Notes: generated by a model not told the origin, from the letters alone. Counted from the first letter of the stretch, positions 2,425 through 54,603 are shown. The stretch: 64,000 bases of DNA from Dictyostelium discoideum (GCA_000004695.1 CM000154.2:4640001-4704000), one strand, 5' to 3'. Translations and numbers: made by a program.

Positions 2425-3418
2425 GTGATTTTTTTTATTTTATTTTTTTTTTTAATTTTGATGGTGGTTATACATTCTCATATAAAAAATTTCATACCAA
2501 AAAATTTCAAAAATAACTTTTTTTTTTTCAATCAACATAATTACAAAACAATGATATCCAATCAAAATACAATAAATAATATTGATAATAATAAAAAGTG
2601 TACACTTCACCCAAACAAAGATATAGTATTCTTTTGTTTGGATTGTAAATTAATACCATGTTGTATTCAATGTACATCAAGTAAAGGTGAACACCATGGT
2701 CATAGAACTGATACATTAGAATCAACATCAAATATTCTTTCATTAATGAATAATTTTAAAAATGATGTATATCAAAAAGTAGTTGAAAGAATAGAAAATA
2801 ATAAAACAATATTAAAACAATCAAATGATAAATACAATGATATTCAATCACAATTTGATATTAATAATAGTTTATTAAAAAGAGAAATTAGAAAAATTCA
2901 TGATATCATTTCATTCATAGAATTAGATATTAAAAAACAATTAGAAACAACCTATGAAAATAATACATTAATAAATACAATTATAACTTCTTCAACCAAT
3001 AATGATAATGAAATACTTTCAAAAATAATTAATAATAAAAATAAAAATAAAAATGAAAATGAAAATGAAAATGAAAATGAAAATGAAAATGAAAATGAAA
3101 ATAATATTACAATCATTGAAAAATTAAATCAAATTTTAACTATTAATGATCCACAACTTTATGATGTTGGAGATGATTTTGTTATTGATAGAGATACTAT
3201 TAAAATTATTAAACAATATCAACAATCATTAATAGTATTGAATAATAATAATAGTAATATTGATAATTCAAATAAATTAAATGAATACGATAATCAAATC
3301 ATTCATTTCCATTATCAAATAATTGATGATATTAAAAATAAATTAAAATCAATTTATACATTAAATAATTGTACATTTAAAATTGAAATCGATGAAAATA
3401 ATAATAGATTTTTTAAAT
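2425..3418 (+). CDS. B-box zinc-finger protein, exon 1 of a B-box/FNIP-repeat family gene (copy 1)
   Basis: B-box-like Cys/His cluster 'CTLHPNKDIVFFCLDCKLIPCCIQCTSSKGEHHGH'; a (NE)n tract; the exon ends ...FFKCK with a GTAAGC donor at 3419, as in the paralogous copies at 52.8 and 53.9 kb. Confidence 0.6.
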
Positions 3419-3539
3419 GTAAGCTTTAAACAGTTTTTTTTTTATAAATGATATTCACATTACTAACTTTCAAATATAGGGTAATTTAAAGTTTTTTATT
3501 TATAAAAAGGGTGATGTTCTTAAACCCAACGAAATTAAA

Positions 3540-4192
3540 TGAATAGCATTCGAAGACAATTTTAATATTTTATCAAAATTATAAAAAAATCAATTACCAC
3601 CAACTGTAATGCTATTGGATGGATTCAATCAAAAATTAACACCAGGTATATTACCGGATGGTGTTGAATCATTGTATTTGGGTAATATTAAACAAAAATT
3701 AATTATTGGCTCAATTCCTAATACTGTAACTCATGTCTTTTTAAAAGATGGATCAATTGAATATTATCACCAGGTATATTACCAGATGGTGTTGAATCGT
3801 TGTATTTAGGTGATATTAAACATCAATTAATAATTTGTTCAATTCCTAATACTGTAACTTATGTCTCTTTAAAAGATGGATTCAATCAAAAATTAATAAC
3901 AGGTATATTGCCAGATGGTATTGAATGGTTGGGTTTAGGTGACATAAAACAAGAATTAATAATTGGTTCAATTCCTAATACTGTAAAGAGTGTCTCTTTA
4001 AAAGATGGATTCAATCAAATATTATCACCAGGTATATTACCAGATGGTGTTGAATCGTTGGGTTTAGGTGATATAAAACATGAATTAATTATTGGTTCAA
4101 TTCCCAGTACTGTAAAGGAAGTATATGTTTCCAATGGCTTTAAACATCAAATTGAACCTTATTTTTCAGAAAATGTAAACATAATTAAATAG
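3540..4192 (+). pseudogene. FNIP-repeat region (about 8 repeats of LDGFNQKL..GILPDGVESL.LGDIKQELIIGSIPNTV), apparently disrupted
   Basis: FNIP repeat consensus visible. An in-frame TAA (aaattaTAAaaaaatc where the paralogs have GAA) precedes MLLDGFNQ, and a 1-bp deletion near 3780 shifts the frame (ORFs 3609..3809 and 3800..4192 sit in different frames). It cannot be joined in frame to exon 1. Confidence 0.5.
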
Positions 4193-4528
4193 AAAAATAA
4201 TATTTGGTTAAATTAAACAATTTCAATAAAAAAGATAATAAAAACAAAATTATAACTTCACAACTATATAATATTCCTTTTTTTAATAATTTCTTTTTTT
4301 AACCATCATCTGTTGAATAATAAAAAAATAAGCAAACTAAATAATATGTTGGATTTTAAACATTTTAAACTACTATATAAAGAAATAACTGGTGCCACAA
4401 CAAAAACACCAAAAAAAGAGGCAACGTTGAATACAATTTTAGAAAATCAAGAATATTCAAAAAATACATAGGTTAATCGATCTAAAAAAAAAGAAAAAAA
4501 AAAGGTCTAATTAAATTTAATTTTATTT

Positions 4529-52150: not shown

Positions 52151-52424
52151 TCCATAGATGATATAAAATAATTTTAATAAAAAAAACTTCTTTAATATTT
52201 GTAAAAATTTTAACAATATTAATGACGATTTTTTAAATTTTTTTTTTTTTTATTATTTAAATAATATTTATTATTAAATTAATAAACCTAAAACTTAAAC
52301 TGAGTTGAAATCTGACATAATGAAAATAACCATGCATGAAAAGAAAATCACCCAGACTTATTTTTAATTTTTTTTTTTTTTTTGTTTATTTTTAATTAAT
52401 AAAAGAAACAATTCATTCAAATAG

Positions 52425-53388
52425 AAAATTAACTCACAAAAAACCAATTATTTTCAAATTATTTTTAATTTTCATATTGATACCAATACAATTAAAATAA
52501 TTAAACAATATCAACAATCATTAATACTTTTAAATAATAATATCAATAATTTTAATAAATTAAAAGAATACAATAATCAATCCATTCATTATTATCAAAA
52601 AATAATTGGAGAAATTAAAAATAATTTTAAATTAATTTACACATTAAATAATAATAATAATAATAATAGTATAAATAATAATAACAATAATAATAATAAT
52701 AATAATAATAATAATAATAATAATAATAATAATAATAATAATAATAATAATAATAATAATAATAATAAAAATAATAATATTTATATTAATAGTAATAGAT
52801 ATGAAATAGAAATAGATGAAGATAATAATGAATTTTTTAAATGTAAGCTTAATTTATTTTTTTTATAGATGATATTCACATTATTCTGACAGTGGAGGTC
52901 CAAATATAGATGGAATATCAAAATTTTATATTTACACAGATAAGGAATCCTTTGAATTTAATAATAAACGTTGTATAGCATTTAAAGAAGATTGTAGTAT
53001 TTTATCAAAATTAGAAAATAATCAAATACCATCGAGTGTAATGTTATTAGATGGATTCAATCAGAAATTAATACGAAATATATTACCAGAAGGTATTCTT
53101 TCATTGTATTTATGTGATATAAGACAAGAATTGATAATAGGTTCAATTCCTAATACTGTAGTGGGTGTCTATTTATTAGATGGATTCAATCAAAAAATAG
53201 AACCAGGTATATTACCAAATGGTATTAAATCATTGCACTTGTGTGATATAAAACAAGGATTAACCATTGGTTCAATTCCTGATGCTTTAGAGTATGTCTT
53301 TATAGAATATAGATTCAATCAAAAATTAGCACCTGATTTATTTCCAGAAACTATAAGATTTCAAAGACTCCAAAGATTTTTATATTAA
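52425..53388 (+). pseudogene. B-box/FNIP family copy 2: 5'-truncated exon 1 (52425..52842, no start codon, no B-box) plus an intact FNIP exon (52910..53388)
   Basis: Exon-1 remnant encodes [17 protein letters not shown]...FFKCK, ending at the conserved GTAAGC donor. Exon 2 after caaatatag| encodes ISKFYIYTDKESFEFNNKRCIAFKEDCSILSKLENNQIPSSVMLLDGFNQ... with 5 FNIP repeats. The upstream ORF opens directly after a TAG with no ATG. Confidence 0.45.
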
Positions 53389-53859
53389 TATAATTTCAAT
53401 TTCCTAATTATATATAACTTTCATTGGTTCATATATTCTAAAATAAATTAAAGAAAAATTAAAAGCATGAAATGAACATTATTCCTAATACTGTGTTTTA
53501 TTTAAATAATAGATATTAACATATATTAAAAAAACATATATTAAAAACCAGTGAAATAAATCATTTATTAAATCAAAAAATTATTAAAATTATTAAATAT
53601 TAATAAATACTAATTTTGCCACTTGAAAATAGAAACAAATTATATAGGAAGGAAAATAATAAAAATAAAATAATTTAAAATAAAAAAAATAAATTAGAAA
53701 TAATTTAAAAATAATTTAAAAATAATTTAAAAATAATAATAATAATAATAATAATAATAATAATAATAATAATAATAATAATAATAATAATAATAATAAT
53801 AATAATAAAAATAATATTAATAATAATAATAATATTTTAATTAATAATAATATTTTAAT

Positions 53860-54603
53860 AAATAATAATAAATATAAAATAGAAATGGATAAAGATAATA
53901 ATGAATTTTTTGAATGTAAGCTTTATTTATTGATTTATTTTTTCATAAATGATATTTATATTATTCTGACAGTGAGGGCCTAAAAATAGATAATATTAAA
54001 AAGTTTTATATTTATACAGACAAGAAGCCTTTTAAATTTAATAAACTATGCATGGCATTTAAAGATGATTGTAATATTTTATCAAAATTAGAAAAAAATC
54101 AATTACCATCAGATGTAATGTTATTAGATGGATTCAATCAAAAATTCATACAAAATATATTACCTGAGGGTCTTGAATCATTGTATTTAGGTGATATAAA
54201 ACAAGAATTAGTTATTGGTTCAATTCTTTATACTGTAAAGAATGTCTATTTATTTGATGGATTCAATCAAAAATTAATACCTGCTGTATTACCAAAAGGT
54301 GTTAAATCATTGTTTATAGGTGATATTAAACAAAAATTAATTATTGGTTCAATTCCTAATACTGTAAGGAGTGTATATTTAGAAGATGGATTCAATCAAA
54401 AACTAGCACCTGCTATATTACCAGAAGGTGTTGAATCATTGGATTTAGGTGATATAAAACAAGAATTAATTAATGGTTCAATTCCTAAAACTGTAACCAA
54501 AGTAGTTGTTTCAAAAAAGTTTAAATACCAAATTAAACCCTATGTTTCTAATAAAGTTCAAACCACGGGAAAAATTAAAATTCACTGGGAGAAGTTTTAT
54601 TGA
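53860..54603 (+). pseudogene. B-box/FNIP family copy 3: exon-1 remnant (NKYKIEMDKDNNEFFEC|GTAAGC, preceded only by (AAT)n) plus an intact FNIP exon (about 53985..54603)
   Basis: Same donor and short-intron structure as copies 1 and 2. The FNIP exon (ORF 54052..54603) is intact, with 6 repeats and a C-terminal tail. No B-box-encoding sequence upstream. Confidence 0.45.

Follow-up and report, generated by a model that had tools for sequence, protein, structure and literature searches.

Truncated and disabled B-box/FNIP-repeat genes in two arrays on Dictyostelium discoideum chromosome 5

Leucine-rich repeats (LRRs) of the FNIP/FGxxFN class form a very large and diversified ligand-binding repertoire in Dictyostelium, the functions of which are largely unknown; in the FGxxFN subclass the motif recurs in every 22-residue repeat with a double phenylalanine spine, and crystal structures are available for CroV588 and CroV539 (PMC9525666). 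In Dictyostelium, a B-box occurs together with FNIP repeats in only one characterised protein, AreA (DDB_G0279871), which interacts with Atg101 and negatively regulates autophagic flux (PMC4554924). Here we describe members of a B-box/coiled-coil/FNIP gene family that lie in a stretch of 64,000 nucleotides (nt) of D. discoideum chromosome 5 (GCA_000004695.1, CM000154.2:4640001-4704000; hereafter the window). They form two arrays, one made up of copy 1 (2551-4192), the other of copies A, 2 and 3 and an orphan FNIP unit (50.8-54.6 kb). As an earlier note on this DNA had claimed, no copy encodes a B-box and FNIP repeats together (three-frame translation, tblastn), and the full-length B-box/coiled-coil/FNIP architecture is found in none of them. 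We consider it quite probable that birth-and-death turnover of a lineage-specific family explains the window copies. Judged from sequence, they would comprise one possibly live truncated gene and several pseudogenes, which is ordinary for a lineage-specific tandem family.

Family architecture and the copies in the window

Full-length members of the family comprise ~430-540 amino acids (aa) and consist of a B-box zinc finger, a long coiled coil and a solenoid of FNIP LRRs, encoded by two exons with one short phase-1 intron between them. With exon 1 of copy 1 as query, a word-index search returned 17 matches, all from strains of D. discoideum or D. cf. discoideum, and an exhaustive search against 1.84 billion representatives returned 51 clusters, the best of which is DDB_G0289849 (Q54GZ7) of AX4, a full-length, uninterrupted protein of 510 aa encoded on chromosome 5. 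A further full-length gene, found in the second assembly (GCA_054883475.1, region L005) at a distance of ~1.6 Mb along the same chromosome, has 513 codons and a single intron of 78 nt, although two good FNIP units are wrongly missing from its public gene model. The search for an intact member elsewhere in the genome, proposed earlier, was thus successful. Full-length proteins of the same architecture are also encoded by D. citrinum, D. dimigraforme and D. firmibasis, and among the matches to the B-box/coiled-coil query is a D. purpureum entry named B box-type domain protein. On these sequence matches, this is a real family of the genus Dictyostelium with members that appear to be live, and the window holds its casualties. 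The Pfam FNIP model scores ~77 bits (cutoff 21) in P0006, the intact 434-aa ortholog of copy 1 in D. cf. discoideum, and in P0007. In the AlphaFold prediction for P0006 only the C-terminal domain is confident, with a predicted local distance difference test (pLDDT) of 80-90, and the long helical region of residues 56-257 is of low confidence. The best match in the PDB to the predicted C-terminal solenoid (its high-pLDDT part) is CroV588 (6nyr, E 4e-6, probability 1.0).

The four copies in two arrays that had been proposed were all found, in their places and on the + strand. With a full-length family protein as tblastn query, the only family sequence detected in the window lies on the + strand, in 2551-4192 and in 50836-54558, and no further copy was found on either strand. 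The suggested dot-plot-type comparison gave the same picture, as 2300-4300 matches only 50.8-54.6 kb in a self-comparison, the remainder being low-complexity noise. Blastn between the arrays gave E-values of 1e-101 to 1e-152, and the 20-mer at the core of the repeat, which is also the target of a retroelement described below, is present in 13 intact copies in the window, against 0.01 expected by chance.

Copy 1 retains the B-box exon, as previously described, and the TAA and 1-bp frameshift reported in its FNIP exon are both present, but the lesions there total four and not two. Exon 1 (2551-3418) is by translation an open reading frame (ORF) of 289 codons that runs from the ATG at 2551 to the T of a split codon at 3418. 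Its B-box (~2587-2715; Pfam zf-B_box, PF00643, residues 13-55, CTLHPNKDIVFFCLDCKLIPCCIQCTSSKGEHHGH) scores 32.3 bits against a cutoff of 24.1. The coiled-coil region that follows includes a (GAAAAT)n tract encoding NENENE (~3021-3100), and the length of this hexanucleotide tract differs in every ortholog and paralog aligned. Exon 1 is 79% identical to the intact ortholog P0006 and contains the peptide DVYQKVVER, which is particular to copy 1. The intron (3419-3479; 61 nt, GTAAGC...ATATAG, phase 1) has homologs of 64 nt in P0006 (L003) and 78 nt in the L005 gene. Exon 2 (3480-4192) is a disabled FNIP exon with ~5 units of 129 base pairs (bp) and a tail, as delimited by translation, alignment and tblastn frame switches. 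Alignment to one intact ortholog and one intact paralog places a 2-bp deletion directly past the acceptor (3482), so that splicing yields W followed by a TAA at 3482-3484; the other lesions are two nonsense substitutions, TGT to TGA at 3540-3542 and GAA to TAA at 3582-3584, and the loss of 1 bp after 3752. At 4190-4192 the exon ends in the family stop codon. At most, copy 1 would give a product of 290 aa when spliced or 292 aa when the intron is retained, which would contain the B-box and coiled coil only. An exact look-up of the 290-aa spliced product and of the simple ORFs of copies 1, 2 and 3 gave no match in the protein collection.

Array 2 starts with copy A, at 50.8-52.15 kb, which is degraded as the earlier note had stated: it is cut in the intron, carries frameshifts and a TAA, and is split by a retroelement relic. 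Exon 1 is absent, and of the intron only the last ~30 nt remain (50791-50821, TTCTGACAGTCCAAATATAG). The 5' part of the FNIP exon (50822-51316) has lost 1 bp near 51089 and contains a TAA at 51300-51302 (translation, tblastn). After the relic of ~410 bp (51317-51727; blastn, alignment, junctions), which derives from the 3' end of the element, the 3' part of the FNIP exon and the C-terminal tail follow (51728-52056), with several frameshifts and deletions and a stop codon at 52054-52056 (translation, tblastn). An orphan single FNIP unit (PNTVTHVFLEDGFNQKLTPGILPEGVDSLSIDDIK, then a stop codon), located by blastn, translation and tblastn, occupies 52063-52171 and is probably the remnant of a fifth copy. 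The spacers 50000-50790, between the kinase gene upstream and copy A, and 52172-52440, between the orphan unit and copy 2, are AT-rich and have no detectable family similarity.

Copies 2 and 3 both lack the B-box 5' half, in agreement with the earlier note (translation, tblastn). The base-level breakpoints of the deletions that took out the B-box halves are not definable. Both copies carry very long in-frame (AAT)n tracts that encode poly-Asn, at 52640-52780 and 53740-53810. The FNIP exons of these two copies had been described as intact; this applies to copy 3 but not to copy 2, where a retroelement relic interrupts the exon and the C-terminal tail is gone. The exon-1 remnant of copy 2 (52440-52842; translation, blastn) corresponds to the 3' half of the exon, the B-box and the first half of the coiled coil being gone. 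It is an open frame without an ATG and includes the long (AAT)n tract; its unique part is 82% identical to copy 1. After an intron of 67 nt (52843-52909, by alignment), exon 2 (52910-53349) is open by translation for 146 codons, which encode the linker and ~2.6 FNIP units and end in ...LFPE. Here the 3' end of the gene is cut at the second relic (53350-53482; blastn, junctions), which comprises the last ~93-135 bp of the element and provides the stop codon of copy 2 (53386-53388); it is followed by an FNIP fragment, ATTCCTAATACTGTG (53483-53497). These lesions lead us to regard copies A and 2, and with them the orphan unit, as dead pseudogene fragments, and to the idea that copies A and 2 might be live we give essentially no credence. 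Three Logan contigs (P0024, L011 and L012) were considered as copy 2 transcripts and rejected, as they are unspliced, bounded by (AAT)n and include intergenic DNA; the 'W' in P0024 is a TGA read under a different genetic code. The annotation of GCA_054883475.1 contains a 1011-aa gene model that fuses the upstream protein-kinase gene with the FNIP fragments of copies A, 2 and 3 (window 48678-54603; L002 8156-14081), which is almost certainly an artefact.

A search with the spliced product of copy 3 identified this copy as the annotated AX4 gene DDB_G0290861 (EAL61995, UniProt Q54FH1, 'FNIP repeat-containing protein', 204 aa). Upstream of the annotated start lies a decayed exon-1 remnant (53549-53884; translation, alignment) with many stop codons, indels and an (AAT)n expansion. 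Its unique part is 59-63% identical to copies 1 and 2, as compared to 82% between those two in this part. The first exon as annotated (53885-53915, AX4 protein P0023) consists of ten codons, MDKDNNEFFE, and the T of the split codon. In the annotated model translation starts at the ATG at 53885, and the conserved donor at 53916 is joined to an acceptor 30 nt past that of the family, so that exon 2 starts at 54020. By alignment, the family-homologous acceptor gives an intron of 74 nt (53916-53989) and an exon 2 of 53990-54603, and both acceptors are in frame. Exon 2 is intact (translation, Pfam), with the linker, four 43-aa units, the tail and a TGA at 54601-54603. It scores 99.1 bits with Pfam FNIP (PF05725, cutoff 21), in three stretches, and contains a peptide particular to copy 3, VQTTGKIKIHWEK. 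From the ATG ten codons 5' of the donor, copy 3 may thus encode an FNIP-only protein of 204-214 aa.

Birth-and-death turnover and its alternatives

Identity is ~83% within array 2 (copy 2 versus 3 and copy 2 versus A) and 73-79% between these copies and copy 1. In the copy-1 subfamily the split codon encodes W, as compared to Y or C in array 2; in intact relatives it is T/GG for Trp (...FFKWNGLKFY...). Because cross-array identity is lower and the split codon differs, the two arrays represent different subfamilies and not recent duplicates of each other. The donor had earlier been read as FFKCK followed by GTAAGC, which needs to be corrected: the true donor is ...FFK plus T/GTAAGC in phase 1, and its GT sits in a TGT that was misread as Cys. 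The short intron itself is indeed conserved, while the length of roughly 60 bp attributed to it fits copy 1 but not copies 2 and 3. Synonymous divergence (dS) within array 2 is 0.24-0.39, several-fold above the 0.067 determined for copy 1 versus its D. cf. discoideum ortholog, and the array-2 duplications are therefore old. Ratios of non-synonymous to synonymous divergence (dN/dS) lie between 0.4 and 1.1 family-wide, with 0.42 and 0.71 for pairs of intact genes and 0.44-1.08 for pairs with window copies. These values suggest weak constraint across the whole family and, as they are found even among intact genes, dN/dS cannot tell live from dead copies. A three-taxon branch split of exon 1 done by hand was discarded, since dS came out negative on the AX4 branch, with too few synonymous differences and possibly gene conversion.

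Other strains carry different combinations of lesions at the same two loci. At the position of copy 1, D. cf. discoideum has the intact gene encoding P0006, with its single intron, which adjoins the same DUF4419, DUF4419 and halogenase-like genes as copy 1. In strain ACTFIR the gene at this locus is frameshifted within the B-box and terminates in a retroelement fragment. The array-2 site, between the kinase gene and the ortholog of DDB_G0290863, holds one broken B-box exon and no FNIP exon in D. cf. discoideum. ACTFIR has two B-box-bearing copies there, both frameshifted, and one inverted FNIP block; in its last copy the final FNIP unit is near-identical to that of AX4 copy 3, while the intron and the first units are lost. 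A block of ACTFIR (L007 13144-14003) that is 88% identical to window 52548-53389 in copy 2 is inverted directly after a B-box exon, an arrangement not present in AX4. The complementary truncations that the earlier note had emphasised do exist in the strain of the window, but because each lineage wrecked array 2 differently, the pattern appears to be incidental. The comparison shows that two loci of the family are strongly polymorphic in structure among strains.

In the turnover that we favour, local duplications at the DNA level carried the gene together with its intron. Copy 1 was then disabled by small indels and nonsense mutations, and copies A, 2 and 3 by 5' deletions, to which retroelement insertion in the FNIP repeat is added in copies A and 2. 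Full-length protein can be supplied by the intact paralogs elsewhere on the chromosome, and the complementary look of the copies would be a by-product of independent decay and not a designed split.

Several observations weigh against this reading and are best discussed together with the strongest alternative, a functional modular split in which copy 1 supplies a B-box/coiled-coil-only protein and copy 3 an FNIP-only protein, the two acting on their own or jointly as a substitute for the fused protein. To begin with, the dead status of copies is drawn from coding lesions only. The four lesions of copy 1 all fall in exon 2, which makes up 45% of the gene, and none in the fully open exon 1 of 289 codons (P ~0.04 for a random distribution); the spliced and the intron-retained route both stop within three codons. 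In copy 3, identity remains at 79-89% from the last 53 nt of exon 1 through the intron and exon 2, as compared to ~60% upstream. This differential decay upstream of the in-frame ATG, which lies ten codons before the conserved donor, suggests that the unit of short exon, intron and FNIP exon was kept under constraint after the upstream part had turned non-coding. Moreover, ~10% of random substitutions in these AT-rich ORFs give stop codons, and with ~57 substitutions on its own lineage since the split from copy 2, the chance that exon 2 of copy 3 stayed open under neutrality is ~0.003. Copy 3 is also annotated as protein-coding in AX4, where other annotated members are partial too, DDB_G0289777 lacking the B-box and DDB_G0289799 the coiled coil.

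Other evidence speaks against the split. Exon 1 of copy 1 has a dN/dS of 1.0 relative to the intact ortholog (9.2 synonymous and 43.8 non-synonymous differences), which gives no sign of purifying selection, and the locus of copy 3 was destroyed differently in two other strains. Public gene models of the family, on which the annotation argument relies, are often artefactual, as the kinase-FNIP chimera illustrates. Neither transcript nor protein evidence for the split was found in the literature by gene ID, in the Logan contigs or by the exact protein look-up; the literature search gave nothing on DDB_G0290861, DDB_G0289799, DDB_G0289777, DDB_G0277005 and DDB_G0290819, DDB_G0289849 not being searched. 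Overall, the functional split appears unlikely, though it is the alternative that fares best. For its parts, the open reading frame and identity profile allow moderate credence for DDB_G0290861 as a live FNIP-only gene, and low credence for copy 1 as a maintained B-box-only gene.

The lesions might instead be sequencing or assembly errors in genes that are truly intact. The window, with ~20% G+C and ~80% A+T, is rich in homopolymers and microsatellites, where indel errors classically arise. A second assembly covers the same region (GCA_054883475.1, contig CM142511.1, 5.29 Mb; regions L001 and L002) and is 99.5-99.7% identical to the window overall, with differences mainly in homopolymers and microsatellites (BLAST, anchored alignment). 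Over copies 1, 2 and 3 the two assemblies are base-identical, and in copy A they differ by 3 nt in a poly-A run. Because of this identity over copies 1-3, the lesions of the copies are not assembly errors. Logan unitigs from two SRA runs are likewise identical to the genome over copy 2, and two of the lesions in copy 1 are substitutions that create stop codons and not homopolymer indels. We therefore regard errors as very improbable. Equally improbable is that copy 1 still yields the full B-box-FNIP protein because its RNA is rescued, be it through use of another acceptor, through recoding or through editing. The first lesion is located exactly at the splice acceptor, and a shifted acceptor could in principle mend the frame, but no AG is positioned for the required phase, and the in-frame TGA (3540), the TAA (3582) and the 1-bp deletion after 3752 would remain. 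Least likely of all, with hardly any chance, are processed or 5'-truncated retrocopies of an mRNA: copies A, 2 and 3 are 5'-truncated, as is common in retrocopies, but they stand in tandem and in a single orientation, their 3' ends have no poly-A tails, and copies 1, 2 and 3 still have the homologous phase-1 GT..AG intron, of which copy A has a 3' remnant; this retention bears out the segmental DNA duplication proposed in the earlier note.

For annotation, birth-and-death turnover as the preferred reading indicates which loci would be pseudogenes, characterises DDB_G0290861 as a 5'-truncated B-box/FNIP derivative, and exposes the fusion of a kinase with three FNIP fragments as an artefact.

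Retroelement relics in the FNIP repeat

Among the elements without long terminal repeats (non-LTR elements) of D. discoideum, a review lists only TRE5 and TRE3, which target transfer RNA (tRNA) genes (PMC5633606), and an R4-like fragment was noted only in P. pallidum (PMC5006619). A text search of the literature gave no description of a restriction-like-endonuclease element for Dictyostelium. The inserts in copies A and 2 (51317-51727 and 53350-53482, both + strand, by blastn against an element in region L009) match neither of the TRE types in their setting: a tRNA scan detected no tRNA gene in the window, and hence the relics are not TRE-type tRNA-associated insertions.

Relic 51317-51727 is 80% identical to the 2.5-kb copy in L009 over 426 aligned columns (blastn), and 53388-53480 of the second relic is 90% identical (blastn). 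The first relic sits in an FNIP repeat between GGTTCA(A/G)TTC and ATTCCTA and holds the last ~20 codons of the element ORF (PSLLLNSWPQHHSINKTNNDI and a stop codon), an (AAT)n tract, a poly-A run and the terminus ...GCATGGAATGCACCTTT(T). Two family models of D. cf. discoideum, P0012 and P0020, end in a non-family ORF, ...LLLNAWSQHH(L/S)ISKTNNNN, that matches this PSLLLNSWPQHHSINKTNNDI stretch of the window insert. P0029 and P0030 carry the ORF further upstream, to CRLCx8Hx4C, RHD, KPDIVV-x-IDVCV and EKIDK, and the L009 copy, the longest of the related copies, reaches the reverse transcriptase (RT) region with GDSLCPLLF and YIDD. We had also considered the insert shared by copies A and 2 as a second intron; this was rejected, as it has no GT..AG borders, contains the end of a retroelement ORF, and has other 5' ends elsewhere.

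With the L009 element as query against all fetched regions, eight fragments were mapped: the two in the window and those at L008 4883-5778 and 8547-9375, L009 5591-8075, L010 4688-4952 and 6930-8006, and L004 7397-7491. No two of the eight begin at the same point, their 5' ends lying at reference positions 1, 137, 1359, 1605, 1681, 2081, 2224 and 2393. In contrast, six of the seven fragments with a readable 3' end (from four regions and three genomes) share the 3' end ...GCATGnATGCACCTTT directly before (A/C)TTCCTAATACTGT, the 'IPNTV' of the FNIP repeat, and the 3' terminus of the element reads AAAATTAAAAGCATGNATGCACCTTT; the 3' end of the L010 6930-8006 fragment is rearranged. On the 5' side, the host sequence ends at GGTTCA(A/G)T(TC) in three fragments. 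The insertion target is GGTTCAAT^TCCTAATACTGT, which encodes 'GSIPNTV'. Fragments that share their 3' end and target site but are truncated to different extents at the 5' end bear the signature of a target-specific long interspersed nuclear element (LINE).

As to the type of element, database support is weak, though consistent: Pfam scores stay below the cutoffs (RVT_1 26.2 versus 29.6 bits, E 7.6e-6; zf-RVT 24.2 versus 27.5 bits), and the only sequence matches in the PDB are two R2 retrotransposon proteins, with E-values of 2e-4 and 5e-4. The endonuclease domain alone gave no sequence match in the PDB, and its AF2 model has a pLDDT of 42. Among the copies seen none is full-length, and a homology search with the ORF gave three short fragments and no full-length named element. 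The CCHC, RHD, KPD-x14-D and EKxDK motifs would correspond to the R2 consensus, and the element appears to share with R2-type elements the order RT, CCHC knuckle (CRLCx8Hx4C), RHD, KPD-x14-D and EKxDK. A fixed target and fragments with one 3' end and varying 5' ends are a further likeness. The target differs, being a repeat inside protein-coding genes in place of ribosomal DNA or some other RNA gene. We tentatively call the element R2-like, with a putative restriction-like endonuclease that is assigned from these motifs. It is conceivable, although we rate it slightly below an even chance, that the relics represent a site-specific R2-like LINE of the D. discoideum complex, uncatalogued as judged by the reviews, which targets FNIP-repeat DNA and would have killed B-box/FNIP genes recurrently and driven their turnover. 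For a LINE to settle in a coding repeat shared by the genes of one family would then be an unusual form of 'safe-haven' strategy, the genome being gene-dense and its other LINEs directed at tRNA genes.

Neighbouring sequence and comparison with known systems

The window includes the part of chromosome 5 from DDB_G0290821 to DDB_G0290863. Both genes are on the - strand and match the AX4 protein exactly, DDB_G0290821 (4529-5722) encoding a DUF4419 protein; DDB_G0290863 lies at 54739-55758. Two tandem DUF4419 paralogs of ~89% identity (4529-5722 and ~6182-7093, - strand) adjoin copy 1. In regions L003, L004 and L008, from other strains or regions, additional DUF4419 genes alternate with additional B-box/FNIP copies, an alternation that looks like co-amplification as one unit, with a copy number that varies among strains. 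A short ORF at 1587-1820 (+ strand) with LLVMDNAPIH scores 17.9 bits with the Pfam transposase model DDE_3, under the cutoff of 28.6, and may be a DNA-transposon remnant; in the annotation of GCA_054883475.1 it forms the end of an 896-aa 'DNase_II' gene model.

The systems closest to the window copies are the chromosome 5 genes DDB_G0289849, DDB_G0289799 and DDB_G0289777. They share the two-exon structure and the domain order of B-box, coiled coil, NLKFY linker, 43-aa FNIP double units and ...FKHQIEPYVSKNVKIIK tail, and their exon 1 is 62-84% identical in amino acids to that of copy 1. The difference lies in completeness, DDB_G0289849 being full length and the window copies truncated or disabled.

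AreA, a cytosolic protein of Dictyostelium, likewise has a B-box zinc finger at its N-terminus together with FNIP repeats, and both domains are regarded as modules for protein-protein interaction. It differs in carrying DUF4559, which Pfam does not report in P0006, P0007 or the translations of the window exons. Judged by named entries, AreA is not among the 17 word-index or 51 exhaustive matches to exon 1 of copy 1, and it is at best a distant relative. Similarity to the FGxxFN LRR proteins resides in the repeats, with Pfam FNIP scores of 77-99 bits and a predicted fold that matches CroV588. Here, however, the repeat is a 43-aa double unit with (D)GFNQ in alternate repeats only, and the first F of FGxxFN is absent.

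Outside the genus, the order of B-box, long coiled coil and C-terminal ligand-binding domain resembles animal TRIM/RBCC proteins. These have a RING finger and a SPRY domain, whereas the proteins described here start 12 residues before the B-box, have no RING in Pfam and end in LRRs. The absent RING sets them apart from TRIM/RBCC proper, and the long helix (residues 56-151 and beyond) is predicted only at low confidence. Like the family described here, TRIM clusters are tandemly duplicated, fast-evolving and rich in pseudogenes. The combination of B-box, coiled coil and variable LRRs with a rapid turnover would fit a role in recognition or defence.

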